Assembly: GCA_014687725.1 (NCBI GenBank)
Contig: GCA_014687725.1_4094.1
Direction: 5' to 3' (one strand)
DNA length: 64,000 bases
From: a phage
Part shown: positions 1 to 13,816 of the stretch, one piece after another
Layout: each line of letters starts with the position of its first letter
Numbering within the stretch: position 1 is the first letter of the stretch
Notes under the pieces: model-generated
The model's database searches: none
Told to the model about the DNA's origin: nothing
What the model saw: only the letters and a program-made list of their open reading frames with translations
Made by a program: the position numbers and the translations under genes

Positions 1-1
1 A

Positions 2-190: not shown

Positions 191-192
191 CA

Positions 193-226
193 ACGCGGGG
201 AGATAATAACTCCCCGTTACTTTTTC
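193..226 (+). terminator. rho-independent terminator
   Basis: GC stem ACGCGGGGAG/CTCCCCGT with 7-nt loop followed by T-run, right after stop codon. Confidence 0.6.
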
Positions 227-356
227 AGTACTGAATCATTTAATAGACGGATCTCGGCACCCGGTGGGTTAGTGACTGTTTCGTCTTGATGTAGTAATTA
301 TGCCAGTACTGGATGCACTTGTCAACAACTATTTTTCAAATACTTTTTATTAAAAT

Positions 357-412
357 ACTTGCAATTAGTTTTTAAACGCGTATAATGTTTTGCATAGGGG
401 GAGCGGTTCCCC
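357..412 (+). promoter_or_regulatory. class I early promoter + 5'UTR stem-loop cassette (PeSL-like)
   Basis: -35-like ACTTGCA 357-363, TATAAT 381-386, conserved TTTTGCAT, hairpin GGGGGAGCGGTTCCCC 397-412, then SD AAGGA. Confidence 0.6.
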
Positions 413-433
413 TGGTAACTAAGGAATAAGAAA

Positions 434-670
434 ATGGTCGAACAAATCAAATCAACGTCTTCGAATGTAACGGGAACGGTAGCACACTTTACTAGTGATG
501 AATCGCGGGGCGTTCCCTATTGTGCTGTACATGTAAACACTGAGGGTAACTACTGGTTTACGGTTTACGGATCATATTCATTTGGACGGCCAGGGCATCA
601 AAAAATTCTGGATAAAGTACAACCAACGGGTAAAAATATCACTGCCGAAATGTTTTATAAAAAATCATAA
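434..670 (+). CDS. hypothetical small protein (78 aa)
   Basis: ATG with SD AAGGA upstream; follows class I cassette. Confidence 0.7.
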   Translation: MVEQIKSTSSNVTGTVAHFTSDESRGVPYCAVHVNTEGNYWFTVYGSYSFGRPGHQKILDKVQPTGKNITAEMFYKKS

Positions 671-673
671 AGT

Positions 674-734
674 ACTTGATAATAGTTTTTAGTACTGTAT
701 AATATTTTACATCGCAAGGGGGAGCGGTTCCCCC
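674..734 (+). promoter_or_regulatory. class I early promoter + 5'UTR stem-loop cassette
   Basis: TTGATA 676-681, TATAAT 698-703, hairpin GGGGGAGCGGTTCCCCC 718-734. Confidence 0.6.
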
Positions 735-754
735 TGGTAACTAAGGATAATCAA

Positions 755-1054
755 ATGAAAATTGCAATCATCGCCCTGGCTTTATCTGTTTCCTCTTTCG
801 CTGTTAATGCGTCATTAGATGTAAGTAGTGAAAAATTCATTCAGTGCACTGTTGCAATGACCGATGAAAGTACTGGCGAGATTGTTTTAAAGGATTTAGA
901 GATCCAGCCAGAAGCATTTAAAAACGGGCCGTTCCATGAAGAAGACGAAAAAGGTAGCACGACAATTTATTACGATGCAAGTACTAAACGCGGTTCGGTC
1001 ACTGTTATGGATACTGAGAAAGTTACATTCACTGGCGTAATTAATTGTTTATAA
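755..1054 (+). CDS. small secreted/periplasmic protein (predicted signal peptide)
   Basis: N-terminus MKIAIIALALSVSSFAVNA = hydrophobic core + AxA-type cleavage motif; SD AAGGA. Confidence 0.7.
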   Translation: MKIAIIALALSVSSFAVNASLDVSSEKFIQCTVAMTDESTGEIVLKDLEIQPEAFKNGPFHEEDEKGSTTIYYDASTKRGSVTVMDTEKVTFTGVINCL

Positions 1055-1071
1055 TATAGTACTGAATCACT

Positions 1072-1100
1072 AGCCCACTATAAGAAGTGGGCTTTTTTTA
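1072..1100 (+). terminator. rho-independent terminator
   Basis: stem AGCCCACT/AGTGGGCT followed by T7 run. Confidence 0.8.
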
Positions 1101-1150
1101 TTGTAGTATTGTAGTACTGGTATACTTTGAAAATAGTTTTAAAAAAGTAG

Positions 1151-1178
1151 TTGACATTACCAGGGAAAAGCGTAGAAT
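1151..1178 (+). promoter_or_regulatory. sigma70-like promoter with ~115-nt leader
   Basis: TTGACA 1151-1156, 16-nt spacer, TAGAAT 1173-1178. Confidence 0.5.
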
Positions 1179-1292
1179 GTATTACATCAAGACGGGGAAC
1201 ACTAAGTAGACCGCCAGTAAGTCGAATGAAAAACTGGACACGTCAAACAAACTTTGATAAACTAACTTAAACTTTAATTGAGGATTTATAAA

Positions 1293-1775
1293 ATGGCTAA
1301 TGTAAAATCATTTCTGAAAGCACTGATTTCTAACGATACTGTTATTGCTGCTGAATTGCTGGCTGACCTGGATAATGATACCATGAAAGCAGTACGCAAC
1401 AATTTTAACATTGCTTACAGTGAAGCGAAAGAACTACAAGCCAAAAAGGTAGCAGAACTGGAAGAACAGAAAAAAGCCCGTGAAGCAGAACTGCAAGCAA
1501 CAATAGAAAGTATTCAGGCGGCGGTGTCTGGTTTAGATCTGGAAGTGGTTATTGAAATGGCACATAAAGCCCTGGCGGTTAAGTACGGTGAAGATAAGCC
1601 GGAATCTAAGCCTAAAAAATGGATTCAAGAACGTGTTACGGTTGTCCTTGATAACGGGGAAGAACATTTGATTCCTGTACGCGGTAACTGCATTGCGGTA
1701 GTACTGGATGCAATCAAAGAAAGCGGTATGACTCGCGAGGAATGGATCGAAGCTCACCGCAAAGTTGAAGCATAA
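1293..1775 (+). CDS. hypothetical protein (160 aa)
   Basis: ATG 1293 with SD GAGGA 8 nt upstream; track ORF began at in-frame TTG 1278. Confidence 0.75.
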   Translation: MANVKSFLKALISNDTVIAAELLADLDNDTMKAVRNNFNIAYSEAKELQAKKVAELEEQKKAREAELQATIESIQAAVSGLDLEVVIEMAHKALAVKYGEDKPESKPKKWIQERVTVVLDNGEEHLIPVRGNCIAVVLDAIKESGMTREEWIEAHRKVEA

Positions 1776-1796
1776 CAATTAAAGTACTGAATCACT

Positions 1797-1823
1797 AGCC
1801 CACTGTATAAGTGGGCTTTTTTG
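1797..1823 (+). terminator. rho-independent terminator
   Basis: stem AGCCCACT/AGTGGGCT + T-run; near-identical to terminator at 1072-1100. Confidence 0.8.
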
Positions 1824-1839
1824 TGTTTATCGTTTACCA

Positions 1840-1912
1840 GGCCACCAGCACCGCCTAGAATCGATTCTAACGCATTAAACTGATTATCTGATGCATCGCC
1901 CTAGCTGGTGGC
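1840..1912. repeat. inverted-repeat element with opposed Chi octamers flanking a perfect 14-bp palindrome
   Basis: CCACCAGC 1842-1849, palindrome TAGAATCGATTCTA 1856-1869, GCTGGTGG 1904-1911. Confidence 0.5.
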
Positions 1913-1975
1913 GTTAAGGTCGTTAGAATGCGATTGAGGACGTTTAAAGTATTTTGCAAAAAGTAATAAAAAGTA

Positions 1976-2036
1976 CTTGCACGATTAAGAGATTAGCGTA
2001 TAATGTTTTACATCGAGAGGGGGAAACGGTTCTCCT
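1976..2036 (+). promoter_or_regulatory. class I early promoter + 5'UTR stem-loop cassette
   Basis: -35-like TTGCAC 1977-1982, TATAAT 1999-2004, GGGGGAAACGGTTCTCC hairpin in leader. Confidence 0.55.
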
Positions 2037-2059
2037 TCCAAATCAAAGGAATCAAAACA

Positions 2060-2287
2060 ATGGCTATCGTAATCGCTTATGTAACTGGTACTACTGGCAC
2101 TTCTTCTACTGTTGCTGTAATTACCAACAAGAAAGGTGCGGAATTACATTCTGCAATGGATACCTGGGCGGTAAATGAGTTCGGTCAGTGGGCAAGTGTA
2201 GCATATGTTGAAACCTATCAAGTGCCAACCATTAGCTTAACGGATCTCGGTGTAGATCGTATCCTTTGCCTGGATGAATTAAATTAA
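2060..2287 (+). CDS. hypothetical small protein (75 aa)
   Basis: ATG 2060 with SD AAAGGA; track ORF start 2003 lies in promoter -10/leader. Confidence 0.7.
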   Translation: MAIVIAYVTGTTGTSSTVAVITNKKGAELHSAMDTWAVNEFGQWASVAYVETYQVPTISLTDLGVDRILCLDELN

Positions 2288-2373
2288 AAAAGTACTTGCA
2301 AAGTAAATCAGATAAAGTATAATACATTACATCAAGGGGAGAAATGGTTCTCCCTGATAATGAGGAAACTAAT

Positions 2374-2517
2374 ATGAAAACTTGTCAATGTGGTAAAAAA
2401 TCTATTACTGGTTTAAAGCGGGGCGTTGCTCTTTGCCAGTACCATTATAATTTACAAGTATGGGGTAAAGAATGGGCCGACCAGGTGGAAGCAGCAAAGA
2501 AAGCAAAAAGTAAGTAA
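2374..2517 (+). CDS. Cys-rich small protein (47 aa)
   Basis: ATG with SD GAGGAA behind class I cassette; C-x-C...C-x2-H pattern; below track size cut-off. Confidence 0.55.
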   Translation: MKTCQCGKKSITGLKRGVALCQYHYNLQVWGKEWADQVEAAKKAKSK

Positions 2518-2528
2518 AATTATTATCA

Positions 2529-2566
2529 CAGTACTATTGACATAGATTGATAGTACTGGCATAATA
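2529..2566 (+). promoter_or_regulatory. class II promoter with palindromic -35 region
   Basis: TTGACA 2537-2542, 17-nt spacer, CATAAT 2560-2565; -35 embedded in near-palindrome CAGTACTATTGA..TGATAGTACTG. Confidence 0.55.
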
Positions 2567-2598
2567 GATTTTATCAAGACAACTAAGAGGAAACAATA

Positions 2599-2811
2599 AT
2601 GGCTATCATCACAAAAATCAAAGTAAACAAATCACTGGTTAAGCTGGAAGAAGTGAAAGAAGGTTATAAAGTATCGTGGTGCGGCATGTATCGGATTTTT
2701 ACAGATGTTGACGATGCAATCAATTACTACACTGACACGGTAAAAAACTTTGTTCGTGCTGATGTGGTTATGGCAGTGGCAACACACAAAGCATCGAAAG
2801 AAAGTAAGTAA
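2599..2811 (+). CDS. hypothetical small protein (70 aa)
   Basis: ATG with SD AGAGGAA. Confidence 0.7.
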   Translation: MAIITKIKVNKSLVKLEEVKEGYKVSWCGMYRIFTDVDDAINYYTDTVKNFVRADVVMAVATHKASKESK

Positions 2812-2822
2812 AAATATTATCA

Positions 2823-2860
2823 CAGTACTATTGACATAGTTTGATAGTACTGGCATAATA
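2823..2860 (+). promoter_or_regulatory. class II promoter (duplicate of 2529-2566 block)
   Basis: TTGACA 2831-2836, CATAAT 2854-2859; ~80-nt block incl. leader nearly identical to 2508-2590. Confidence 0.55.
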
Positions 2861-2892
2861 GATTTTATCAAGACAACTAAGAGGAAATTAAA

Positions 2893-3237
2893 ATGGCTAA
2901 TATCAACACTATCGCAAAACAAAATATCAACCTGTCTTCTGTTGAAGTTGTACATATTGCCGCTCGGCGTTGGTTCCAGGCTTCATATGGTAACACTTAT
3001 TTCTCTTTAAGTGTAGACGTAGAAATTGATGGTAATTTTATTGAAGTAGTAAACGTGCCGTTCCAATATGGATACGGGGATCACTTTGACACTGTAGCAA
3101 TGGAAGAATTTAGCAAGGTTATTAATATGGAAGATAAAGAGTTTTTACGCGGTTCTTATCTTTCCCGTTTTTGCCGTGACAATAATATCACTGTTTACAG
3201 TTCGGTAACTGATGTTAAACGCAAAAAAGATCTTTAA
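2893..3237 (+). CDS. hypothetical protein (114 aa)
   Basis: ATG with SD AGAGGAA. Confidence 0.7.
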   Translation: MANINTIAKQNINLSSVEVVHIAARRWFQASYGNTYFSLSVDVEIDGNFIEVVNVPFQYGYGDHFDTVAMEEFSKVINMEDKEFLRGSYLSRFCRDNNITVYSSVTDVKRKKDL

Positions 3238-3317
3238 TTAGCTTTACTTTATGCAGATACTTTGATATAGTGTCTGCATAGGGGAAAGAAATTAAATTAA
3301 CTTAAGAGGATAGTATA

Positions 3318-3587
3318 ATGAAAAATATCAGTACTTTAATTGATGCAGGTACACATGTTCGGCGGTCTATGGTTGCAACCAGTACTACAAAACAAGTAGC
3401 GAGCGGTTATCTTGTATTTGTGCACGATGGTAAACTCCTGGAACGTTCAATCAATTTTGATGTTAAAAACAATTGCCGTTTTATTATCTTTAAGCGTGAA
3501 CAATATAAAATTGATTTACCAGCGAAGCCCATAAGCGGGGCGTATAACGTCTATTCATTGTTTGAGCGTCAACCATACACCTATTAA
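3318..3587 (+). CDS. hypothetical protein (89 aa)
   Basis: ATG with SD AAGAGGA. Confidence 0.65.
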   Translation: MKNISTLIDAGTHVRRSMVATSTTKQVASGYLVFVHDGKLLERSINFDVKNNCRFIIFKREQYKIDLPAKPISGAYNVYSLFERQPYTY

Positions 3588-3638
3588 TCAAAACATCGTT
3601 AGCGGTCGATTTAGGCCGCTTATATTGGGGATTATACC

Positions 3639-3911
3639 ATGAACGTTAATCAAGTACTGAATGAGATCGAAAGCATCATTAAACCGATGAAGCGTACTGA
3701 TGCTATGTTAACACCGGAAGAATGCCGCCTTTATGAGCGTTACAGCGTCGAACAAGTCCAGGCAATGGCTATGGCTACGCCAGCCGTTAAACCGCCTGAG
3801 AATGCGTTACAGGACGTTACAGGGGATTATATCATCAATCCAGTACTAGGGAAGATGGCTGCAATCACCGAAGATCAACAAGACTACTTAAGCCAGTACT
3901 TAAAAGGTTAA
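3639..3911 (+). CDS. hypothetical protein (90 aa)
   Basis: ATG preceded by G-rich SD-like TTGGGGA; hairpin upstream. Confidence 0.65.
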   Translation: MNVNQVLNEIESIIKPMKRTDAMLTPEECRLYERYSVEQVQAMAMATPAVKPPENALQDVTGDYIINPVLGKMAAITEDQQDYLSQYLKG

Positions 3912-3916
3912 TTAAT

Positions 3917-4126
3917 ATGCTTACTGTACAGGATAAGATCGACATCTTAAAGGTTAATATGTATGTGATTGATGCAGTACCTGGTAAAGTATTTGCATAC
4001 GATGACACCACTGTAAGCGATTTCTACTATAGCCAGGACGTGGGGGATCTTTCTGTACAGTCGGTTATTGAAAACGTAGTTAATGCAGCGTATGAGCATT
4101 TACTTTCAAATAGTACTTGCAATTAG
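3917..4126 (+). CDS. hypothetical protein (69 aa)
   Basis: ATG 6 nt after previous stop, SD AAAAGG. Confidence 0.6.
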   Translation: MLTVQDKIDILKVNMYVIDAVPGKVFAYDDTTVSDFYYSQDVGDLSVQSVIENVVNAAYEHLLSNSTCN

Positions 4127-4176
4127 TTTTTAAACGCGTATAATGTTTTACATGAAGGGGAGAAATGATTCTCCCC
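4116..4176 (+). promoter_or_regulatory. class I early promoter + 5'UTR stem-loop cassette
   Basis: TTGCAA 4117-4122, TATAAT 4139-4144, hairpin GGGGAGAAATGATTCTCCCC 4157-4176. Confidence 0.6.
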
Positions 4177-4195
4177 ACTAATTAAGGAATATGAA

Positions 4196-4342
4196 ATGAA
4201 AGCATCAAAAAAGAGTAATACTAAGAAAGCACGTTCACCTTTCGCTGGGGTATTCCCTTTACGTTTCGTTGATGAAGTGGTTTCCTACCCGCCTGGCCTT
4301 ACTCCTGAGATGGTAGAAAGTTTGCGTAAATCTAAAAAATAA
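4196..4342 (+). CDS. basic small protein (48 aa)
   Basis: ATG with SD AAGGAA; below track size cut-off. Confidence 0.55.
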   Translation: MKASKKSNTKKARSPFAGVFPLRFVDEVVSYPPGLTPEMVESLRKSKK

Positions 4343-4344
4343 TA

Positions 4345-4405
4345 CTTGCAATTAGTTTTTAGTACTGTATAATAGTTTACATGAAGGGGAGAAATAGTTC
4401 TCCCC
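4345..4405 (+). promoter_or_regulatory. class I early promoter + 5'UTR stem-loop cassette
   Basis: TTGCAA 4346-4351, TATAAT 4368-4373, hairpin GGGGAGAAATAGTTCTCCCC 4386-4405. Confidence 0.6.
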
Positions 4406-4423
4406 AATAACAGGAGAAACAAA

Positions 4424-4576
4424 ATGAAACAATATAATGCTCGGATGGATGTAACTATCGGTAACGGCAAAGGTCAATTCTCTTTCAGTACTCGCAAAAG
4501 TTATACAGAAAACTTCCTGCGTAATTGTGCACTGACCGCCGCACAAATTAAACATTACTTTCAGGCTAAAAAATGA
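4424..4576 (+). CDS. hypothetical small protein (50 aa)
   Basis: ATG with SD AGGAGA; below track cut-off. Confidence 0.55.
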   Translation: MKQYNARMDVTIGNGKGQFSFSTRKSYTENFLRNCALTAAQIKHYFQAKK

Positions 4577-4662
4577 AATCATTAGCTTATTACAGTTCGG
4601 CCCTGGTCGGTGCATTGATCGCGGCATTGTTAGTAACCTATCTATTCTTTATGGTGATTTAA
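4573..4662 (+). CDS. 29-aa hydrophobic peptide (one predicted TM helix)
   Basis: ATGA overlap with upstream stop; MKSLAYYSSALVGALIAALLVTYLFFMVI. Confidence 0.4.
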   Translation: MKSLAYYSSALVGALIAALLVTYLFFMVI

Positions 4663-4800
4663 ATGAATCCTAACGGTTTAATTTACAGTACTCCTAAAAC
4701 GAAAGCAGATAAAGCGAAAGCACGTAAAGCGAAAGTAAAGGAGTACATCAAGCAAGGCATGACGCGAAAGGCGGCAATTCTAAAAGCTAAAAATAAATGA
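4663..4800 (+). CDS. lysine-rich small protein (45 aa)
   Basis: ATG directly after upstream TAA; followed by R1 terminator. Confidence 0.45.
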   Translation: MNPNGLIYSTPKTKADKAKARKAKVKEYIKQGMTRKAAILKAKNK

Positions 4801-4808
4801 AAAAAAAA

Positions 4809-4895
4809 GTGGTTGACTTCGGTCAGCCATTTTGCTATTATGTATTCATTGAGAGATAGCTCACTAGCCCACAGGGTGCATAAGTGTATCTATTG
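4809..4895 (+). repeat. R1 terminator-promoter cassette, copy A (divergent)
   Basis: hairpin TGGTTGACTTCGGTCAGCCA 4810-4829 + T-run; TTGACT 4813-4818 inside hairpin, 17-nt spacer, TATTAT 4836-4841; 3' box AGCCCACAGGGTGCATAAGTGTATCTATTG. Confidence 0.55.
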
Positions 4896-4944
4896 TATAA
4901 TGATTGAGTACTGAAAACTATTTTAAAGTATTTGATAAAAAGTA

Positions 4945-5004
4945 CTTGCATACTATCTCAATAGGCGTATAATGTTTTACATCGCAAGGGGAAACGGTTT
5001 CCCC
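4945..5004 (+). promoter_or_regulatory. class I early promoter + 5'UTR stem-loop cassette
   Basis: CTTGCA 4945-4950, TATAAT 4968-4973, hairpin GGGGAAACGGTTTCCCC 4988-5004. Confidence 0.6.
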
Positions 5005-5024
5005 TGGTAATAAGGAAACGAATC

Positions 5025-5366
5025 ATGACTATTGCAATTGCTCAATCTAACTTTGAAAACGAAATCATCGCTCAGGCACTGCGTTTAAATGATGGTCGGG
5101 CCGAAATCAATTACGGTTTCAATAGTGGTGGATGTGAAAAATATCAGTACTTTATAACTGCTGATGGCGGTGTCCTGGGCATCAATACCGTTATTGTAAA
5201 CATTCAGAAAATTAATTTCAATGATCCAGACGATAGCCAGTTTTACATCACGGGCGTAGACGTGAACTATGAGGATGACTCACTAACTGATGATCACACT
5301 GGTGAGAAGTTAGAAAGTGCATACGGTGAAGATGATTATCAGTCCGGTCCAGAAGATTTCGAATAA
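5025..5366 (+). CDS. hypothetical acidic protein (113 aa)
   Basis: ATG with SD AAGGAA. Confidence 0.7.
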   Translation: MTIAIAQSNFENEIIAQALRLNDGRAEINYGFNSGGCEKYQYFITADGGVLGINTVIVNIQKINFNDPDDSQFYITGVDVNYEDDSLTDDHTGEKLESAYGEDDYQSGPEDFE

Positions 5367-5458
5367 TATTAAAAAATAGTTTGACAATAGTTTTTAGTAC
5401 TGTATAATAGTTTACATGAAGGGGAGAAATGATTCTCCCCACTAAGAGGAAAAACAAA

Positions 5459-5671
5459 ATGGCTAATATCCGCACTGTACTGAAAAATGCAAAACAAGTT
5501 TTATTTTCTGATCATGAAAATTTCAACAAGGATATCACAGGTGTTCGGAATATCAAAGATGTAAAAAGTGTTATGGGTATCTATTGCAATATGAAACGTG
5601 TTGGCACGTTCGGCGATAAAGTACTATACCAGGCAGGGGATTACAATTTTACACTGACTATCATTAACTAA
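5459..5671 (+). CDS. hypothetical small protein (70 aa)
   Basis: ATG 5459 with SD AGAGGA; track start 5429 lies inside leader hairpin. Confidence 0.7.
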   Translation: MANIRTVLKNAKQVLFSDHENFNKDITGVRNIKDVKSVMGIYCNMKRVGTFGDKVLYQAGDYNFTLTIIN

Positions 5672-5684
5672 AAATATTATCACA

Positions 5685-5720
5685 GTACTATTGACAACGT
5701 TTGATAGTACTGGCATAATA
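5685..5720 (+). promoter_or_regulatory. class II palindromic promoter
   Basis: TTGACA 5691-5696, CATAAT 5714-5719; CAGTACTATTGACA..TGATAGTACTG. Confidence 0.55.
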
Positions 5721-5762
5721 ACTTTTATCAAGACAACGCATATTAATTTAAGGAATACTAAA

Positions 5763-5942
5763 ATGGCTATTATCGCAAAAACTGAAATCATCGGCCTGGA
5801 TTCTATCATCATGACGTTTGAAGATCAAAAAGGGATGTATGTAGTTTCCTATGGTGATTATGTTCGGGAGTATGAAACGGTAGACGAAGCCTTTGAAAGT
5901 TACATTCGCCAGGTGAATAAAGCATACGACGACTACCGCTAA
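5763..5942 (+). CDS. hypothetical small protein (59 aa)
   Basis: ATG 5763 with SD AAGGAA; track ORF started in promoter. Confidence 0.6.
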   Translation: MAIIAKTEIIGLDSIIMTFEDQKGMYVVSYGDYVREYETVDEAFESYIRQVNKAYDDYR

Positions 5943-5961
5943 AATATATTACCAGTACTAT

Positions 5962-5997
5962 TAAATCTATTGACAATGATTGATAGTACAGTATAAT
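5962..5997 (+). promoter_or_regulatory. class II palindromic promoter
   Basis: TTGACA 5970-5975, TATAAT 5992-5997. Confidence 0.5.
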
Positions 5998-6041
5998 AAG
6001 TTTTATAAACAGTAGTTAACTTAACCTAAGAGAGAAACAAA

Positions 6042-6185
6042 ATGATCGCACTGGATTCATTCATCGACGCAGTACTGGCAAAAACTGGCGAGGATCTGAC
6101 CGCAGAACAATACGCGATGATCGAGCAATGCCAGCAAAACGGTAAATCGGTGAAAGATACTGTTAAGATTATCCGCAAGATGTAA
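6042..6185 (+). CDS. hypothetical small protein (47 aa)
   Basis: ATG with SD AAGAGAGA; below track cut-off. Confidence 0.55.
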   Translation: MIALDSFIDAVLAKTGEDLTAEQYAMIEQCQQNGKSVKDTVKIIRKM

Positions 6186-6191
6186 GAATAT

Positions 6192-6220
6192 AGCCCACTG
6201 GTTAACGCTGGTGGGCTTTA
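6192..6220 (+). terminator. terminator-like hairpin containing a Chi octamer
   Basis: stem AGCCCAC/GTGGGCT with 12-nt loop, weak T-tract; GCTGGTGG 6207-6214. Confidence 0.4.
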
Positions 6221-6290
6221 ATCATTTACCCTATACAATGCCAGTACTAAACCGTTTAACTCGTTAGAATGCATTACAGGACGTTTAACA

Positions 6291-6488
6291 ATGATTAGCA
6301 TGAAATCAGTACAAAAACAAATTGATACATTATCAAAAATTAAACGTAAACAATACTCATTAGAATATACAATCAATGGTAACTATCATCTAATGAAAGA
6401 GAATAATTTCATAGTCATTGATGAATCATTGCAAGTTATTAGTATAGTACTGAAAGCATTAATCAATGACAGAAAAAAGTTAAAATAA
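6291..6488 (+). CDS. hypothetical small protein (65 aa), weak
   Basis: Track ORF; poor SD, very AT-rich. Confidence 0.35.
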   Translation: MISMKSVQKQIDTLSKIKRKQYSLEYTINGNYHLMKENNFIVIDESLQVISIVLKALINDRKKLK

Positions 6489-6492
6489 TCTA

Positions 6493-6521
6493 TTGACAAA
6501 TTATGCCAGTACTGGCATAAT
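6493..6521 (+). promoter_or_regulatory. class II-type promoter
   Basis: TTGACA 6493-6498, 17-nt spacer, CATAAT 6516-6521. Confidence 0.55.
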
Positions 6522-6583
6522 ACTTACATCAAGACGAGAACGTCACTAACCCATAGGGTGCACAAATGTAGCTGTCTAATATT

Positions 6584-6614
6584 GATCAAAAAATGATCTG
6601 ATCAATACTTGATC
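6584..6614. promoter_or_regulatory. GATC cluster within repeated TGATCA motifs (4 GATC in 31 bp)
   Basis: GATC at 6584, 6595, 6600, 6611; sits in a 330-bp gene-free region. Confidence 0.5.
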
Positions 6615-6819
6615 AATTTGCGTAAAGTAGTATAATTCTATGCAGTTGGTTAGACGAAAGGTTATGATTAGTAGTGGAAGTGTATAAAAATTTTCATGGT
6701 GTGGTGATCCGCACATATGGGGATGAATATGTCGTGTCGTATGGATTGGAAAAAGTAAGAACAAGTAATATACTTGTCGCGTTACAGTACTATAGTATTT
6801 TTATAATGAGGTTAAAATA

Positions 6820-7077
6820 ATGGCTGTAGGATTCACGAAAGATGGGGCCGAGCAAGACGAGATTAACGCAGTGATTCAGGCCGCTGTTAACCACGCTAGA
6901 ACGCAAATTAACGCACAAATAGAATCACTGATACATTGCCTCGACTGCGGCGATATAATCCCTGAGAAACGACGCCAGGCCGTTAAGGGATGTAAGTACT
7001 GCATAACTTGCCAGGAGGATCATGATAGTACTTTTAAACGTCCCCCGCGTAATTGTTGGCATAGATCTATGAGATAA
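6820..7077 (+). CDS. DksA/TraR-family C4 zinc-finger protein
   Basis: CLDCGDIIPEKRRQAVKGCKYC matches the TraR/DksA zinc-finger signature (CxxC...GxxIPxxRRxA...CxxC). Confidence 0.75.
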   Translation: MAVGFTKDGAEQDEINAVIQAAVNHARTQINAQIESLIHCLDCGDIIPEKRRQAVKGCKYCITCQEDHDSTFKRPPRNCWHRSMR

Positions 7078-7083
7078 AAAGTA

Positions 7084-7111
7084 TTGACAGTACTGAAAGA
7101 TAGTGTATAAT
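7084..7111 (+). promoter_or_regulatory. sigma70-like promoter
   Basis: TTGACA 7084-7089, 16-nt spacer, TATAAT 7106-7111. Confidence 0.5.
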
Positions 7112-7140
7112 ATTTTATATCTTAACTGAGGATTGAAATC

Positions 7141-7497
7141 ATGGGAATACAACATATCACGCGTACTACTGACAATGGCGAGATCACTGGCTATCAAGTA
7201 CAGGGCAAAGTAGCACAATTGCAGTACTGGTTTGTTAAACGTGGAATCATTGCACCGGATCTTGATTATGACCGTGTAGCGTTTATTGATTCTCTTTATG
7301 TTGATCCTGATAGTCGGGGCAATGGTGAAGGTAACGAATTAATGAATGCCTTTATTGATGCCGCCGATGATTCAGATTGTATCATTTTAGAATGCGATAC
7401 GGGAGAAGATAACGCCTTTAATCTTAAAGAATGGTACGAAGGTTTCGGATTCGAGGTACTGATCGATAGTGAATATCCTATCATGATTTTATCATAG
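7141..7497 (+). CDS. GNAT-family acetyltransferase-like protein (118 aa)
   Basis: VDPDSRGNGEGNELMNAF resembles the acetyl-CoA-binding R/QxxGxG/A loop; family call tentative. Confidence 0.6.
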   Translation: MGIQHITRTTDNGEITGYQVQGKVAQLQYWFVKRGIIAPDLDYDRVAFIDSLYVDPDSRGNGEGNELMNAFIDAADDSDCIILECDTGEDNAFNLKEWYEGFGFEVLIDSEYPIMILS

Positions 7498-7575
7498 TAC
7501 TTGCATTTAGTTTTCAGTACTGTTATAGTACTTACATCAAGGGGAAACATCTTCCCCTACTAAGAGGAAATAAAA

Positions 7576-7764
7576 ATGGAAAACTTATCAAGTATTTTAG
7601 TACAAGATGATTTCGGTAATCCTGGAAGTGCTATCATTGTTCGGGGTAATAAAGCAACATTTGTTATTGCTGGTGGACCTGTACAGCGTAGCATTAAAAA
7701 TAATGCTGTTACCATTAATAATGTACGCTATCGCTTAGATAAAGAATTGATTCATAAACTTTAA
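7576..7764 (+). CDS. hypothetical small protein (62 aa)
   Basis: ATG with SD AAGAGGAA behind class I cassette. Confidence 0.65.
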   Translation: MENLSSILVQDDFGNPGSAIIVRGNKATFVIAGGPVQRSIKNNAVTINNVRYRLDKELIHKL

Positions 7765-7848
7765 AAAGTATTTGACAATAGATTATAGTACTGTATAATA
7801 AGTTACATGAAGGGGTGAAATGATTCTCCCCACTAAGAGGAAAGAAAA

Positions 7849-8061
7849 ATGCAAGGTCAACTAATCGTTCGTAAATGGTCTGATACTAACGAAAAACCGT
7901 GGGATGTACAATACATCGGACCGGATGGGGTATCACGTTATCAGCCTGGCGTAACGCATAGTACTGAGCAATTCGCAAACGCTCACCGCGAACGCCTGTT
8001 AGAATCCATGAAACAGGGATTCTGTGAAAAATTCATTCAAGATCATTGGCTGAAAGATTAA
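7849..8061 (+). CDS. hypothetical small protein (70 aa)
   Basis: ATG with SD AAGAGGAA behind class I cassette. Confidence 0.7.
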   Translation: MQGQLIVRKWSDTNEKPWDVQYIGPDGVSRYQPGVTHSTEQFANAHRERLLESMKQGFCEKFIQDHWLKD

Positions 8062-8078
8062 TATAAGGAGTACAGCTT

Positions 8079-8171
8079 ATGCAAATGAATCCGATGATTA
8101 TTGTTTTAGCTGTACTTATGATCATTCATGCAATAGTAGAAGTATTAACGCAATCAGGAGTAATAAAATGA
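8079..8171 (+). CDS. 30-aa hydrophobic peptide
   Basis: ATG 8 nt after SD AAGGAG; MQMNPMIIVLAVLMIIHAIVEVL...; below track cut-off. Confidence 0.45.
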   Translation: MQMNPMIIVLAVLMIIHAIVEVLTQSGVIK

Positions 8172-8341
8172 TTCAAGTAGAATTATCAGTACTGAAAGAT
8201 CTGTTTTATCGGTTAGGTACTACTGGCGAGTATCCTAAAAGTGATACCGCAAAACTTTTTGTATCACTCGACTTATGGCAACGCGAACAATTAGTAATGT
8301 CCTGGCGTAAAGGTAAAGCAGATAGCGAGGTGAAAGCATGA
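8168..8341 (+). CDS. hypothetical small protein (57 aa)
   Basis: ATGA overlap with upstream stop; below track cut-off. Confidence 0.5.
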   Translation: MIQVELSVLKDLFYRLGTTGEYPKSDTAKLFVSLDLWQREQLVMSWRKGKADSEVKA

Positions 8342-8487
8342 AAGAATTCTTATTCGAAGTAGTGTTTCAAGGTGTCGGTAGTAACCAACTGATTCGCTCA
8401 AGTGGTTACAATGTTAACCAGGCATGGAATAACATTAAACAAATGTACCCGAACGCTATCACCTATCGCAACCCGAAACAAGTTTAA
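8338..8487 (+). CDS. hypothetical small protein (49 aa)
   Basis: ATGA overlap with upstream stop; followed by R1 terminator. Confidence 0.5.
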   Translation: MKEFLFEVVFQGVGSNQLIRSSGYNVNQAWNNIKQMYPNAITYRNPKQV

Positions 8488-8494
8488 AAATAAT

Positions 8495-8585
8495 TGAAAA
8501 AGGGATTGACTCCGGTCAGTCCCTTTGCTATTATATACGCATAGAAACAAATCAGCCCACAGGGTGCATAAATGTATCTATTGTT
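8495..8585 (+). repeat. R1 terminator-promoter cassette, copy B
   Basis: A-run + hairpin GGGATTGACTCCGGTCAGTCCC 8502-8523 + T-run; TTGACT 8506-8511, 17-nt spacer, TATTAT 8529-8534; 3' box ..AGCCCACAGGGTGCATAAATGTATCTATTG. Confidence 0.6.
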
Positions 8586-8812
8586 TGCTGGTGGCTAGTA
8601 CTATCAAGTACTGAAAACTATTTTTAAAAAAGTACTTGCATTGTACTTAGAATCAAGTATAATGTTTTACATCAGGACGGGGAACGAAACAAGTAACCCC
8701 GTTAAGTAGTCCAGGAGTAAGACATAAGAAAACCTCCCCTGATAAAATAGTTTGACAATAGAAAGTAAACGAGTATAATACTTACATCAACCACTGATAA
8801 GGAAACATTAAA

Positions 8813-9088
8813 ATGCGGATTCTACTGACAGCTAACGAAATCGAACAAGTACTGACTACTAACCTGGAAGACTGGAAACGTGAAGCAGATATCCAGGCGG
8901 TTCAACGGCTTAACGATGAGTTAACGCCGGATGACTTAAGCAAGATTGTAGATCCTCAATTCTACGAAGATATCCACGACACCGCGTTAAGCGTCGAGGA
9001 TGTACTAGATAAGCACTACATTGATATTGATTTGCAGGTTTACGGTCGTAAAAACTTTATCACTATTCACGACATTTACAATAATTAA
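8813..9088 (+). CDS. hypothetical protein (91 aa)
   Basis: ATG with SD AAGGAA; two promoters upstream. Confidence 0.7.
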   Translation: MRILLTANEIEQVLTTNLEDWKREADIQAVQRLNDELTPDDLSKIVDPQFYEDIHDTALSVEDVLDKHYIDIDLQVYGRKNFITIHDIYNN

Positions 9089-9174
9089 GTATTGACAAAG
9101 TATCTTAGTACTGTATAATAGTTTACATCGAGAGGGGGAATGGTTCCCCTCCTAACAAAGAGAGAGAAATAAAA

Positions 9175-9357
9175 ATGGCTAAATGCACTATCTGTAAGAA
9201 AGAAATCGTATTAGTTCCAAGTGCCCGTGAACGTGCCGCTCGGTTCGGTGGCAAACCGTCAGACTATACAAAAATGTTTACTGTCCATGCAGCTTGCCAG
9301 GTAGCAAAACGTTCACAAGAAAGCGTAGAATTAATGCGTAAACTTTCCAAAAAATAA
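9175..9357 (+). CDS. hypothetical small protein (60 aa), Cys-containing
   Basis: ATG with SD AGAGAGA behind class I cassette. Confidence 0.7.
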   Translation: MAKCTICKKEIVLVPSARERAARFGGKPSDYTKMFTVHAACQVAKRSQESVELMRKLSKK

Positions 9358-9445
9358 GTATTGACAAAGTATCTTAGTACTGTATAATAGTTTACATCAA
9401 GTGAGGGGAAACGGTTCCCCTCCTAACAAAGAGAGAGAAATAAAA

Positions 9446-9769
9446 ATGGCTATGATCCTTGCCCAGAAAGTAGAACTGAAAATTGTAACCTCCTTTGACA
9501 TTAAAGTTAATCGGTGGACTGATTCACACGGCAATACTTACCACTCTTGCTACGTGTCTGCGTTAATTGGTGATCGTTGGGAAGACCTGGGACATGAAAC
9601 CTTTACATACGGTTACGGCACACAAGGCGAATACACGGGCTTGGAGATCATTAAAGAAACCGTTATAGGTTTCAACCCGAAAGAAACAGTTATTCACCGC
9701 ATCGAGGAAGAGATCAACAAAGAAATAACAGTTCGATACTACGATGTAAAACGTAAGAAAGATATGTAA
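9446..9769 (+). CDS. hypothetical protein (107 aa)
   Basis: ATG 9446; track start 9401 is a GTG inside the leader hairpin; cassette 9355-9445 duplicates 9084-9174. Confidence 0.7.
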   Translation: MAMILAQKVELKIVTSFDIKVNRWTDSHGNTYHSCYVSALIGDRWEDLGHETFTYGYGTQGEYTGLEIIKETVIGFNPKETVIHRIEEEINKEITVRYYDVKRKKDM

Positions 9770-9855
9770 TAGAATCCATTTAAAGTACTATTTGACATTG
9801 CCCAGATAGTACTTTATAATAGACTCTAACTTGTAGTACTAACTCAACTAATAGG

Positions 9856-10260
9856 ATGTATACCATGATTACTAAATTCTACGCTACCCGTGAAGCTGCC
9901 CGTATTGTTGCACGCGAGGAAGGAGCAGCATTTAAAGACATGGGCAAAGATGCACCGAAAGGCCAACGCTGGGCCGTACAGTTCAAAGAGATCTCTGATA
10001 TTGTGAATTCACCTGAGCCAGTACTAACAGCAGCAGAACTAAAACGAGCGGATTTACTGGCGTCAATACTTGATGCACAAGATGAGTTTATCGCTGATTC
10101 TGATATCAAAGTACAGACAAACCATACCGCTTGGACTCACGCGGATCACCTGGCAAACCTGAAGCGTCCAAGTGAACTGGTACGCAACCAGAAAGAGATC
10201 CGACACGACCGTAAGGGTAATCGTGTAACAGTATACAGTAAACGCCGCCAGGTTATCTAA
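9856..10260 (+). CDS. hypothetical protein (134 aa)
   Basis: Track ORF; alternative ATG at 9865; GC-richer than neighbours. Confidence 0.7.
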   Translation: MYTMITKFYATREAARIVAREEGAAFKDMGKDAPKGQRWAVQFKEISDIVNSPEPVLTAAELKRADLLASILDAQDEFIADSDIKVQTNHTAWTHADHLANLKRPSELVRNQKEIRHDRKGNRVTVYSKRRQVI

Positions 10261-10282
10261 TAACTTGCAGTACTAACAACAC

Positions 10283-10308
10283 GGCGGGATCAGTTCCCGC
10301 CTTTTTTA
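10283..10308 (+). terminator. rho-independent terminator
   Basis: stem GGCGGGA/TCCCGCC + T6. Confidence 0.8.
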
Positions 10309-10321
10309 TAGGACAAACAAA

Positions 10322-10576
10322 ATGATTAAGGTTCAACTATATAAAGATAATATCTTGCGGGTACACTATAAAGCCCCTCAGAGAATCATCACAAAGGCCG
10401 TACAGCTTGCTAATGAGTTTATTAATGGTAACCTATTACCAAGGAAGTTAAGCAACGGAAAACTGCGTGTAATCGATGTAGACACTAACAACAGAATAGT
10501 AATTGAGAACACAGGAAAGATAAACCTATATGAACACCAACAATATAATAAGAAAATAAAACTAATATCACGTTGA
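10322..10576 (+). CDS. hypothetical protein (84 aa)
   Basis: ATG with SD AGGA. Confidence 0.6.
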   Translation: MIKVQLYKDNILRVHYKAPQRIITKAVQLANEFINGNLLPRKLSNGKLRVIDVDTNNRIVIENTGKINLYEHQQYNKKIKLISR

Positions 10577-10629
10577 CAGTACTCAATTGTTTTAGTACTA
10601 TGTACATATACCAACACGGGAGAAACAAA

Positions 10630-10848
10630 ATGAAATTATCTAAAATCGAAAAGAAAACTATTGATGAAGCAGTTAAGCACGGTTATACCTTTCGTAATGA
10701 TTCACATTTTACCAATTTTCAACAAGGGTATCGTACTATTAAAAAACTCATTGACAAAGGTTTATTAGTTGAAGTCAATAACGGCAATGGTATTGAGTAT
10801 CAACCAACACAAGACGCATTTTATTTTAAGAAATATAATATTATCTAA
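10630..10848 (+). CDS. hypothetical protein (72 aa)
   Basis: ATG 10630 with SD GGGAGAAA; track start 10573 is the TTG of the promoter -35. Confidence 0.65.
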   Translation: MKLSKIEKKTIDEAVKHGYTFRNDSHFTNFQQGYRTIKKLIDKGLLVEVNNGNGIEYQPTQDAFYFKKYNII

Positions 10849-10905
10849 TTGACAGTACTCAAATGTTTTAGTACTATATGTACATACCAACACGGGGAAA
10901 ACAAA

Positions 10906-11148
10906 ATGATTACTTTAGAAAAACGTATCAAAGAAACTACATCGCTGGTGGAACTGTTAACAGTACTGAAATGCCGTACTACTCGGTTTAGTACACCGGA
11001 CTTTATTAATATGGTTGATGTTAACGGTCGTTATCGCATTGCAGTAGAACAAGGAACAGCGAAAGTATTCAGTACTAAAAACACTAAGGAAGTGATTCAT
11101 GCTGTAAGTGTTAAAAAAGTAGTTGCCATTGATAGTAAAGTACTGTAA
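10906..11148 (+). CDS. hypothetical protein (80 aa)
   Basis: ATG 10906; promoter/leader block 10849-10905 duplicates 10563-10629. Confidence 0.65.
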   Translation: MITLEKRIKETTSLVELLTVLKCRTTRFSTPDFINMVDVNGRYRIAVEQGTAKVFSTKNTKEVIHAVSVKKVVAIDSKVL

Positions 11149-11179
11149 GATAGTTTCATTAACTCAAGGAGAACATGCA

Positions 11180-11764
11180 ATGCGTAATTATACTAAATTC
11201 ATCCGTACCCTGTCAGAAATGGAAACCAACAAAGAGATCCTTTCAGCTTGTCGGTTAGCTGGTCTGGAGATCATCGGTGCGGGTTCTTCCCGTATTGTAT
11301 TCGCTTTAAATGATCGGTTAGTGATCAAGGTCGCGAATTGTGATGCGGGTGTAGAACAAAATGAAACTGAATGTAAGGTATGGAATTTTTTAGATTATGA
11401 CCGCCCTCAATTGAAACAGTACTTTGCAAAGGTGCATATGCATTTATGCGATCCTGATAATATGTTTATCGTTATGGATCGGTTGAGTACTGCAAGTAAA
11501 GGCAGTGTAAAGCACGTAAACGCGTGCAATGAATTAAAGTACAATATTAAACGTAATGCCATTGAACGCCAGCACCGCTTTGCTGATGCACTACAACACG
11601 TTGATGATACATTATCAACACTAACGATAAGAGATATCAGAAAACAGAATATCGGCCAGGATCGTAATGGCCTTATTAAAGTACTTGATTACGGTTTAAC
11701 CCGCAATATCTGGAATCAGTACTATAAAAAGCGTGATGTAGAAGCAAGTAAGGTAACACGATAA
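11180..11764 (+). CDS. protein kinase-like protein (eukaryote-type kinase fold)
   Basis: Gly-rich loop GAGSSRIVF, VIKVA lysine, catalytic-loop-like IRDIRKQN, DFG-like DYG; ATG with SD AAGGAG. Confidence 0.75.
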   Translation: MRNYTKFIRTLSEMETNKEILSACRLAGLEIIGAGSSRIVFALNDRLVIKVANCDAGVEQNETECKVWNFLDYDRPQLKQYFAKVHMHLCDPDNMFIVMDRLSTASKGSVKHVNACNELKYNIKRNAIERQHRFADALQHVDDTLSTLTIRDIRKQNIGQDRNGLIKVLDYGLTRNIWNQYYKKRDVEASKVTR

Positions 11765-11771
11765 AAAAGAT

Positions 11772-11862
11772 TAAAAAAGGGATTGACTCCGGTCAGTCCC
11801 TTTGCTATTATATATTCATTGAGAGATAACTCACTGACCCATAGGGTGCGGAAGTGTATCTA
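11772..11862 (+). repeat. R1 terminator-promoter cassette, copy C
   Basis: hairpin 11779-11800; TTGACT 11783-11788, TATTAT 11806-11811. Confidence 0.6.
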
Positions 11863-11984
11863 TTATATAAGTATTCAGTACTGAAAACTATTTTAAAAAA
11901 GTACTTGCAATGTACTTAGAATCAAGTATAATGTTTTACATAGAGAGGGGGAAATGGTTCTCCCTGGTAATAAGGAATAAAATC

Positions 11985-12206
11985 ATGACTACAATGACTT
12001 GCATTTACGCTTCCAATCTTCTGAATGATGCGGCCTTTAATGTTGATTCAGAATATCAATGTTATCGGGATGAAAATAAAAAAGTTTTTGTAGTTGATAA
12101 TAATGGTTTCCATATTGAATTACAATCCGGTTTCACTGGTGTTGATGGTAAATCAGTGTGGGGCGTACAGGATGATAAAGGCACATATCATTTTAAACGT
12201 AATTAA
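11985..12206 (+). CDS. hypothetical small protein (73 aa)
   Basis: ATG 11985 with SD AAGGAA; track start 11910 is inside promoter/leader. Confidence 0.7.
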   Translation: MTTMTCIYASNLLNDAAFNVDSEYQCYRDENKKVFVVDNNGFHIELQSGFTGVDGKSVWGVQDDKGTYHFKRN

Positions 12207-12290
12207 GTATTGACAAAGTATATCAGTACTGTATAATAGTTTACATCAAGGGGAGAATAGTTCTCCCCGATACTAAAAGGAAACAAAATT

Positions 12291-12563
12291 ATGTCCAGCT
12301 ACTCCGCTACTATGATCATTAAAGATATGAACGGTAATCCTACTTCTGCTGGTGGATCATTTGGAAACATTAATTTAGATGGTCGGTTATCCATGCAATC
12401 AGCCATCGATGCAGCGAAAGAAGTTTTTAAGAATGAATGTACTGTTAGTAAGCTGGATTATATGGGATTCGCTATCGAGAAAACTAATCGTTTTGTGAAC
12501 TACAAAAATCCACTGATGATTGATACTAACCTGAAAGCTAACGAAGTGGGGTACTTATTATGA
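12291..12563 (+). CDS. hypothetical protein (90 aa)
   Basis: ATG with SD AAAGGAA behind class I cassette. Confidence 0.7.
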   Translation: MSSYSATMIIKDMNGNPTSAGGSFGNINLDGRLSMQSAIDAAKEVFKNECTVSKLDYMGFAIEKTNRFVNYKNPLMIDTNLKANEVGYLL

Positions 12564-12751
12564 CAGTAGAAGAAGTTAAAAAAGTACTGGCAGTACTACG
12601 CTATCATAATCATTGCAAGGTGAAGAATGATCCTGATTATGTTGATTCATCCCTGGAGGAAGACACATTAAACGCAATAAGCCATATGCAAACATTAGCA
12701 AAGCGTATGACCGAAAAGAATAGACCGGACTATATCGGAAATAAAATTTAA
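12560..12751 (+). CDS. hypothetical small protein (63 aa)
   Basis: ATGA overlap with upstream stop. Confidence 0.6.
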   Translation: MTVEEVKKVLAVLRYHNHCKVKNDPDYVDSSLEEDTLNAISHMQTLAKRMTEKNRPDYIGNKI

Positions 12752-12837
12752 AAAGTACTTGCATTGTAGTTAGATTAACGTATAATGTTTTACATAGAGC
12801 GGGGGAACTATTCCCCCGCCAGTCCAGGAGATACACC

Positions 12838-13101
12838 ATGAACACTATCGAAATCACTATCAATGCACACGTATACGACAACGTAGTACTGCAAACTACT
12901 ATGACCGCTAATGATACCAGTACTTTGCGGAATACTGTTATTAGTGCCGTATGTGCCGCTATCGGTGATGTCGCCCTGGAAAATGCAGAACACATCAACA
13001 ACGGTTTCACTATGTGCAAACGTGATAACGCAAAACATATCATCGTAGAAGGTTACGGCGGTGTAGAATATAATCTTTATATGAAAAAAGTACTTGCATA
13101 A
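12838..13101 (+). CDS. hypothetical protein (87 aa)
   Basis: ATG with SD AGGAGA behind class I cassette. Confidence 0.7.
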   Translation: MNTIEITINAHVYDNVVLQTTMTANDTSTLRNTVISAVCAAIGDVALENAEHINNGFTMCKRDNAKHIIVEGYGGVEYNLYMKKVLA

Positions 13102-13168
13102 TAACTAAAACAAAGTATAATGTTTTGCATAGGGGGAGATATCCTCCCCCACTAAAAGGAGTAATAAA

Positions 13169-13393: not shown

Positions 13394-13469
13394 AAGTTTT
13401 ATTTCAGTACTATTGACATAGCTTGATAGTACTGATGTAATAACTTTACTAACTACAAGGGGAAACATA

Positions 13470-13727: not shown

Positions 13728-13816
13728 AACTATTTGACAGTACTAACCAGTAATGTATAATGTTTTACATAGAGCGGGGGAATAGTTCTCCCGCCAATAG
13801 TTTGGAGTAAAACATT

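Follow-up and report, generated by a model that had tools for sequence, protein, structure and literature searches.

Paired GATC palindromes on an early promoter of an Asteriusvirus jumbo phage: a candidate operator within an optional cassette

In phage P1, the packaging site pac holds several TGATCA/G hexamers within tens of base pairs, where Dam methylation controls a phage DNA transaction; two hexamer clusters, essential for packaging, flank the cleavage site. The inside end of IS50/Tn5 holds GATCAGATCTTGATC (sequence verified in 234 plasmids), and Weinreich and Reznikoff reportedly found in 1992 that Fis occupies the IS50 end only on DNA without Dam methylation. At the Pmom promoter of phage Mu, RNA polymerase is excluded by Fis at sites whose centres lie at -49, -38 and +3, and the promoter is also under Dam/OxyR control (PMC3378877). 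At the tandem rsd promoters of E. coli, methylation of the five GATCs lying between them acts directly to strengthen polymerase binding (PMC3089606), and λ pR is activated by SeqA through GATC sites (PMC2777414). Here we analyse a cluster of four GATC sites in a 64,000-nucleotide stretch of phage DNA (contig GCA_014687725.1_4094.1 of GenBank assembly GCA_014687725.1; hereafter the window), which we assign by sequence to a jumbo coliphage of the genus Asteriusvirus (121Q/PBECO4-like). Two predicted promoters, P1 and P2, flank the cluster, which lies upstream of a gene for a TraR/DksA-like protein. We tentatively favour, at somewhat less than even confidence, the reading that it is a promoter operator comprising two dimer sites on P2, with host Fis as the best candidate for the predicted binding and with possible sensitivity to Dam methylation.

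Like Pmom, the locus is a phage promoter with clustered GATCs just upstream, the site centres lying at about -52 and -36 in the clade of the window and at about -52 and +4 in the clade of phage 121Q. Unlike in Mu, where the GATCs lie in the OxyR site, the OxyR consensus does not fit here and the GATCs form the ends of the Fis-like cores themselves. Pmom is moreover a late promoter, weak and in need of an activator; P2, by contrast, is a predicted early σ70 promoter close to consensus. The IS50 element is also a 15-bp element beginning and ending in GATC and is identical to our site II at 12 of 15 positions, but its role is that of a transposon end to which transposase binds, and not of an operator at a promoter. 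In having tandem promoters and several GATCs placed between or around these, the locus resembles rsd P1/P2 and λ pR, although the GATCs of those systems are spread over 100-350 bp and do not form abutting palindromes. With P1 pac the locus shares several TGATCA hexamers within a few tens of base pairs; it differs in having one cluster, situated on a promoter, inside a 21-kb terminal repeat and in a cassette that sister phages lack.

Four GATC sites within 6584-6614, as the initial annotation had described, are read in the sequence, with starts at 6584, 6595, 6600 and 6611 and hence successive spacings of 11, 5 and 11 bp. Its further statement that each sits inside TGATCA holds for only three of them, since 6594-6599, around the GATC at 6595, reads TGATCT. 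The four sites are the ends of two abutting 15-bp inverted repeats, 1 bp apart, with the half-site GATCAA (Table 1). GATC #4 (6611-6614) lies within the -35 hexamer of P2, TTGATC, so that a GATC overlaps a core promoter element. The placement of the cluster between two promoter-like elements was likewise borne out, with the σ70-like P1 (11/12 matches) upstream and P2 (10/12) downstream. Judged from the position of its -10, transcription from P2 would start near 6643, and the site centres of -52 and -36 depend on this estimate. P1 belongs to a repeated family of early promoters, with copies at 257-325 (minus strand), 2534, 2828, 5688, 9090, 9359, 12208 and 14180. At 6572-6579, all ten relatives with sequence there read TGTATAAT, an extended -10 whose transcription start would land on GATC #1; the window alone reads TGTCTAAT, abolishing this possible third promoter.

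Table 1. Features of the locus and related elements, with positions in the window.
Feature	Position	Strand	Description
Left direct repeat copy	6479-6489	+	11-bp GTTAAAATAAT; includes stop codon of the upstream 65-aa open reading frame
P1	6493-6521	+	TTGACA, 17-nt spacer with CCAGTACTGG, TG-extended CATAAT (6521); 11/12 matches
Leader element, ~55 nt	6523-6580	+	core CACTAACCCATAGGGTGCACAAATGTA; transcribed from P1 (predicted); early-region repeat family
Site I	6584-6598	unstranded	palindrome GATCAAAAAATGATC; GATC #1 and #2; centre ~-52 of P2; exact match to GNNYAWWWWWTRNNC
Site II	6600-6614	unstranded	palindrome GATCAATACTTGATC; GATC #3 and #4; centre ~-36; overlaps P2 -35 hexamer
P2	6609-6636	+	TTGATC, 16-nt spacer, TATAAT (6636); 10/12 matches
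48-aa protein gene	6674-6820	+	GTG start; 121Q gp293 family, PHROG 38664
Right direct repeat copy	6811-6821	+	11-bp GTTAAAATAAT; right cassette boundary
TraR/DksA-like C4 zinc-finger gene	6820-7077	+	distal gene of the predicted P1/P2 transcription unit
Dam-family N6-adenine methyltransferase gene	55090-55611	+	Pfam PF05869, E 6.6e-32; possible trans-acting modifier of the GATC sites

To follow the locus among relatives we aligned 11 phages from two clades, window/PBECO4 and 121Q. Between the clades, the non-coding DNA that surrounds the sites shares only 46-77% identity. GATC #1, #2 and #4, each with the following AA, are invariant in all 11 phages and in a metagenomic haplotype described below, and the -10 of P2 is invariant in all aligned phages. 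Changes inside the palindromes are limited to the central 5 bp, the outer half-sites remaining constant. Two 15-bp inverted repeats, one of them on the -35, with invariant outer half-sites and variable centres make regulator operators the best supported of the readings that had been proposed for the cluster. GATC #3 is found only in the window/PBECO4 clade, to which the complete site II is thus specific. Phages of the 121Q clade carry a near-identical palindrome, GATCAA(A/T)TCTTGATC, directly after the -10 with its centre near +4, a position that would likewise occlude the promoter. A third haplotype, recombinant, is present in two metagenomic Asteriusvirus contigs, L053 (OERM01000014.1) and L055 (OERD01000139.1), and has three GATCs, those of site I and the one in the -35. 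Because this haplotype carries only these, the constant core of the cluster is site I plus the GATC in the -35, and a second full palindrome is frequent, not universal. The upstream half of the recombinant cassette is 121Q-like and the part beyond the -35 is window-like, with the breakpoint at GATCAATTT. The most conserved part of the locus is P1 with its leader of about 55 nt, not the GATC cluster.

We then asked how unusual such a cluster is. The window holds 124 GATCs against 207±13 expected from dinucleotide shuffles, and the shortage is regional: positions 1-15400 have 63 (52-73 expected), whereas positions 15401-64000 have 61 (143-166 expected), about 40% of expectation. The probability of four GATC starts within 27 bp is 0.0024 under uniform random placement window-wide and 0.012 when the early region's own GATC density (63 sites in 15.4 kb) is applied. 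For a genome-wide view we used TH47, a sister phage whose complete 352-kb genome was reassembled for this analysis and whose record is marked 'unverified'. In the whole of TH47 the locus is the sole place with at least three GATCs in 31 bp, or at least five in 100 bp. TH47 likewise has a peak of GATC density in its early region. Two of the three copies of TTGATCAA in the window fall inside the cluster. A BLAST search with the 47-bp cluster in 50,697 phage records matched the orthologous locus alone, with no second copy in any genome, and the cluster was 100% identical in 15 genomes of the window clade. Other GATC pairs with 11-13-bp spacing occur in the window at 2243, 11312, 14546 and 50320, none with the extended motif; by eye, three of the four are in apparently coding DNA and the one at 50320 is just 5' of a start codon. 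This last, in a ribosome-binding region, is also the only other place in the window where the palindrome occurs within one mismatch. TH47 has just one further GATCA-N5-TGATC, at 26415, which is intergenic, has no clear promoter and has no counterpart in the window. An exact scan of IMG/VR for TGATCAATNCTTGATCA returned 30 matches, about the number expected by chance, which by eye were seemingly unrelated and not associated with promoters.

Candidate binding factors were compared by scoring ten E. coli consensus motifs on the region and on random 101-bp windows of the same sequence. With the loose Fis consensus (GNNYAWWWWWTRNNC), site I scored 11/11, a value that 0.3% of random windows reach. 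With the strict Fis consensus GNTYAAAWTTTRANC, taken from PMC6907758, both sites scored 11/13, equalled by 3.3% of random windows; site II has one C in the otherwise A/T-rich centre of the Fis core. That core is 15 bp long and has G at -7, C at +7, and a pyrimidine at -4 and A at -3 that T at +3 and a purine at +4 mirror. The best OxyR match was 13/20, equalled by 7% of random windows and off-centre relative to the cluster, and a GATC inside the site of a methylation-sensitive regulator, as in pap, agn43 and Mu mom, was accordingly not found for OxyR. IHF, CRP, FNR, LexA, DnaA and Fur scored at background (13.5-94% of random windows do as well) and SlmA below it (100%). We therefore rejected OxyR and these seven other factors as binders, all having scored at or below background. 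Only Fis stands out among the ten motifs, suggesting host Fis as the leading candidate binder.

The cluster is part of a larger unit. The initial annotation took the whole stretch from 6489 to 6819 to be gene-free, but the open reading frame at 6674-6820 is conserved, annotated and matched in PHROG, leaving 6489-6673 (185 bp) as the truly non-coding part, a normal spacing for two tandem promoters. This reading frame encodes 48 amino acids (aa) and is annotated in phages 121Q (gp293), PBECO4, WPEC3, CMSTMSU and Turkey3. The frame is preserved in 11 phages, the 'unverified' record of TH47 showing one premature stop, and the encoded protein matches PHROG 38664 end to end (E 6e-33). Substitutions between the window and 121Q number 10, 7 and 24 at codon positions 1, 2 and 3, the third-position excess being as in coding DNA. 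Because its stop overlaps the ATG of the TraR-like gene (TAATG), the two genes are probably translated as a pair. The assignment of the downstream gene to the DksA/TraR family was upheld by Pfam (zf-dskA_traR, PF01258, E 1.6e-10), by PHROG 54 and by the DksA-like annotation in relatives.

The whole 332 bp form an optional cassette. Alignment with phage ph0011 shows a clean 332-bp gap, and in that phage the upstream 65-aa gene runs straight into the DksA-like gene (coding sequences 1591-1788 and 1788-2045). Phages phAPEC6 and UE-S1 give a two-piece match like that of ph0011, with the cassette absent. The cassette is bounded by the two copies of an 11-bp direct repeat, of which the empty site of ph0011 has a single copy (...AAAAAGGTTAAAATAATGGCAG). 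In order, it contains P1, the conserved leader, the operators, P2 and the 48-aa gene, and lies directly before the TraR/DksA-like gene, which in cassette-bearing phages is thus predicted to gain two promoters immediately upstream. Arbiol et al. reportedly described in 2010 the promoter-early stem-loop (PeSL) cassettes of T4-type phages, small early genes each with a σ70 promoter and a stem-loop in a hyperplastic region, with units said to be gained and lost by recombination at short repeats. The cassette described here resembles them as a unit of promoter and small open reading frame that is optional among relatives and bounded by a short repeat, with paralogous promoter modules across the early region; unlike PeSL units, it belongs to a different phage lineage and has different motifs (AGTACT-bearing promoters).

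In the mechanism we consider, a dimeric DNA-binding protein would probably occupy both inverted-repeat operators. A bound protein would keep RNA polymerase off P2 and could stop transcripts running through from P1 as well, thereby tuning the output of two genes, the 48-aa gene and the TraR-like gene coupled to it in translation, whose product is predicted to bind RNA polymerase. As the outer half-sites are Dam sites, the methylation state of the DNA may affect how far they are occupied. The predicted parts of this scheme are that a protein binds, that its binding represses, which protein it is and what part methylation plays. If the sites are bound as proposed, a nucleoid protein of the host, perhaps together with adenine methylation, would serve a lytic jumbo phage in controlling a factor of the TraR/DksA type, which reprogrammes host RNA polymerase. 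The mechanism has good precedents in Mu mom, IS50, rsd and λ pR, and the gain would be a further example, not a new principle; regulation of the early regions of Asteriusvirus, for its part, is almost unstudied.

Several observations weigh against this reading. Whether gained by insertion or lost by deletion, the cassette is dispensable, being absent from the viable sisters ph0011, phAPEC6 and UE-S1, and any function of it would be accessory. The loose Fis pattern has about 5 matches per 64 kb, as chance predicts, the consensus is degenerate and the match was found post hoc. A second full palindrome is not obligatory, as the haplotype of L053 and L055 shows, and the A-tract between site I and the -35 has 4 to 6 A in the 121Q clade, shifting the distance by 0-2 bp, so strict helical phasing is not conserved. 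The downstream palindrome of the 121Q clade sits where other early mRNAs have a 5' hairpin, and a role in RNA is possible there. The palindrome occurs essentially nowhere else in the genome, which suits local control and gives no regulon for a dedicated phage regulator. Finally, a purely Fis-based explanation does not account for the half-site positions ±6 (A/T) and -4 (C), which never vary in any half-site, though the centre varies as a Fis site would be expected to. Fis needs neither A at -6 and T at +6 nor C over T at -4. Invariance at positions that Fis does not read implies that GATC itself seems constrained, by Dam, SeqA or another protein, and this extra constraint may keep a role for Dam methylation or SeqA alive.

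A methylation switch proper, which has a small but real chance of being the explanation, would have P2 fire differently on parental, fully methylated DNA and on newly replicated hemi- or unmethylated DNA, either through an altered affinity of σ70 polymerase for the GATC-bearing -35 or through SeqA on GATC pairs one helical turn apart. The invariance of GATC at three positions, including bases that Fis does not specify, would be explained, and the rsd and λ pR systems are precedents. The 11-bp spacing puts the paired sites on one helix face, and we find the arrangement that SeqA prefers, at least two GATCs on one helical face no more than about 31 bp apart (PMC2691817). The phage also encodes a Dam-family enzyme, the annotated methyltransferase at 55090-55611 having been confirmed by its match to the Pfam Dam family (PF05869, E 6.6e-32). 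The initial annotation had named base modifications that preclude GATC methylation as a finding that would count against its proposal; digestion of DNA from fEgEco12, a sister phage, with ten restriction enzymes gave the predicted cuts (PMC13070987), and therefore global hypermodification is unlikely. On the other hand, Dam and SeqA need GATC alone, yet the flanking AA and the inverted-repeat geometry are also conserved, and in the 121Q clade GATC #2 and #4 are not at a fixed distance, which shifts by 0-2 bp. The phage methyltransferase is only a candidate GATC methylase, its gene is found in all clades, equally with and without the cassette, and a Dam of the phage's own would leave just a brief hemimethylated period. 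A combined form, in which Dam-gated Fis sites are occupied according to DNA methylation or replication state and host growth rate, is quite improbable; if true, a jumbo phage would thereby sense both the age of its DNA and the growth phase of its host, and would time a TraR-like polymerase modulator accordingly. The SeqA-bound origin that had been suggested alongside methylation switches and operators is disfavoured, the cassette being missing from sisters, the DnaA-box signal being at background (best box 6/8, with no direct-repeat iterons seen at the locus) and the site lying about 11 kb inside the terminal repeat. A cassette that can be dispensed with also speaks against any essential cis function, whether origin or packaging site. 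A pac site of the P1 type is likewise disfavoured, as there is a single cluster with three TGATCAs, dispensable and about 11 kb inside a repeat of about 21 kb, not at its end. An origin or pac role is thus unlikely, and the earlier view of the region is corrected in that it is not gene-free, is an optional cassette and is not an origin.

It is rather unlikely that the cluster has no dedicated function and is a by-product of local TGATCAA duplication in AT-rich, UP-like DNA, kept by hitch-hiking or recent ancestry. AT-rich UP-like elements upstream are normal for these promoters, the cassette is dispensable, one haplotype has just three GATCs, and the identical copies of the window clade count as a single observation; GATC is also not depleted in the early region, where clusters are less improbable (P=0.012). 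Such a by-product is hard to reconcile with three GATCs and their flanks remaining invariant while neighbouring non-coding bases diverged to 46-65% identity, with a second near-identical full palindrome carried independently by two clades at different promoter-occluding positions, and with this being the sole such cluster in 352 kb. A distinctly unlikely alternative is that the sites serve as operators for a dedicated dimeric repressor, encoded by the phage or by the host but other than Fis, possibly with the 48-aa product autoregulating P2. Perfectly kept half-sites of 6-7 bp with variable centres are typical of helix-turn-helix or ribbon-helix-helix operators, the operators and the 48-aa gene travel as one indel unit, and the palindrome is essentially unique in the genome, as an autoregulatory site would be. 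Yet scans with Pfam and PHROG identified no regulator gene nearby, and the 48-aa sequence differs by about 40% between clades with the half-sites unchanged. The AlphaFold model of the 48-aa protein is confident (pLDDT 88.5; four β-strands and a C-terminal helix), but a PDB fold search with it gave no significant match, DNA-binding folds included (best E 0.43). The sole homologue among 5.8 billion proteins comes from PBECO4, and with neither a significant fold match nor a second homologue, we rejected the 48-aa protein as a DNA-binding autoregulator. Very improbable, in our estimate, is an element acting as RNA, in which transcripts from P1 would fold two adjacent hairpins that pause, terminate or stabilise the leader, the second palindrome of the 121Q clade forming a hairpin at the 5' end of the P2 mRNA. 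Both hairpins do appear in the minimum-free-energy fold of 6528-6645 (-24.7 kcal/mol, z=-2.05), other early mRNAs of the phage start with a stem-loop, and the 121Q palindrome is exactly at the position of such a 5' stem-loop. However, palindromic DNA always folds as RNA, and there are no compensatory changes by which pairing could be judged. The other 5' hairpins of the phage are GC-rich and unrelated in sequence, so an RNA structure by itself would not call for GATC. The stems are rich in AU and lack a U-tract. No Rfam family matched in a permissive scan of 6000-7300 or in a gathering-threshold scan of the whole window. A terminator scan of 5800-7600 was empty, which rules out the palindromes as a classical terminator.

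The genomic setting of the locus was defined through its relatives. A 1-kb query around the locus matched 37 phage records at 88-96% identity, all of them Asteriusvirus-group jumbo coliphages or Salmonella phages (121Q, PBECO4, SHEFM2K, SP27 and others). The locus is present twice in records that cover the terminal redundancy and, in vB_Ec-M-J, falls under a feature annotated as 'Direct Terminal Repeats'. The direct terminal repeats of fEgEco12 are 20,993 bp long and experimentally verified (PMC13070987), and the locus matches this phage at 10.9-11.9 kb. The GATC cluster is thus placed about 11 kb inside a terminal repeat of about 21 kb, among early genes. The region around it is a series of small genes with a near-consensus σ70 promoter before each. 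In the related phage CBB the equivalent region was interpreted as early and transcribed by host polymerase, and RpoD-like early promoters with UP-like elements were described (PMC5259590). The Dam-family gene at 55090-55611 is only 86-89% identical to that of any deposited Asteriusvirus, whereas the region of the locus is 96% identical to SHEFM2K and SP27; from these differing identities the source phage appears to be a mosaic absent from the phage collection.

Two further observations concern the 48-aa protein. Comparison with the neighbouring 59-aa protein gave a weak signal of paralogy (E 0.006), and none was found with the neighbouring 65-aa protein. At rank 11 of the fold search, the model had a weak, non-significant likeness to P7, the RNA-polymerase-binding protein of phage Xp10.

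The analysis also turned up two features, the repeated leader of the early region and a genome-wide excess of AGTACT, that may merit more attention than the GATC cluster. The leader downstream of P1 is nearly invariant across 10 phages and nearly identical between clades that differ by 25% next door. An nhmmer search recovered 6 copies from the window and about 10 from TH47, none of them outside an early/terminal-repeat region of about 16 kb. The paralogues in the window lie at 4843-4899, 8537-8586, 11813-11868, 14071-14114 and 237-294 (minus strand); the family has an invariant core, CCCAYAGGGTGC, downstream of an early promoter, and in most copies a second promoter follows. The consensus structure of the leader is weak (-4.4 kcal/mol, one covarying pair), and a structured RNA is not supported. 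On the minus strand at 190-325, a promoter and leader copy are followed by a GC-rich hairpin and T-run (CGGGGAGTTATTATCTCCCCG...TTATTTTG), with no second promoter or open reading frame, an arrangement that looks like a stand-alone small-RNA gene of about 110 nt. Behind the early promoters at 9090-9180, 9359-9450 and 12208-12300 come a conserved TTACATCAAG start region, a 5' stem-loop rich in GC and a Shine-Dalgarno sequence, a layout that recalls the T4-type PeSL cassettes.

The window has 233 copies of AGTACT where 17±4 are expected (13-fold), making it the top over-represented hexamer family, with CAGTACTG as the preferred form. Examples near the locus are at 6508-6513 and 6786-6791. TH47 (352 kb) has 917 copies against about 119 expected, spread genome-wide and densest in the early region. 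Within long open reading frames the hexamer occurs in all three frames. A search of the available literature found no description of this excess in these phages. As an idea only, AGTACT may be the binding motif of a nucleoid-type protein. In promoters of the P1 type, two AGTACT copies, 22 bp apart, flank the -35 hexamer. The hexamer is equally enriched in 12-kb samples of Klebsiella phage RaK2 (27 vs 3.9) and Cronobacter phage GAP32 (28 vs 4.0), which belong to genera other than Asteriusvirus, suggesting that its over-representation is common to RaK2-like phages.

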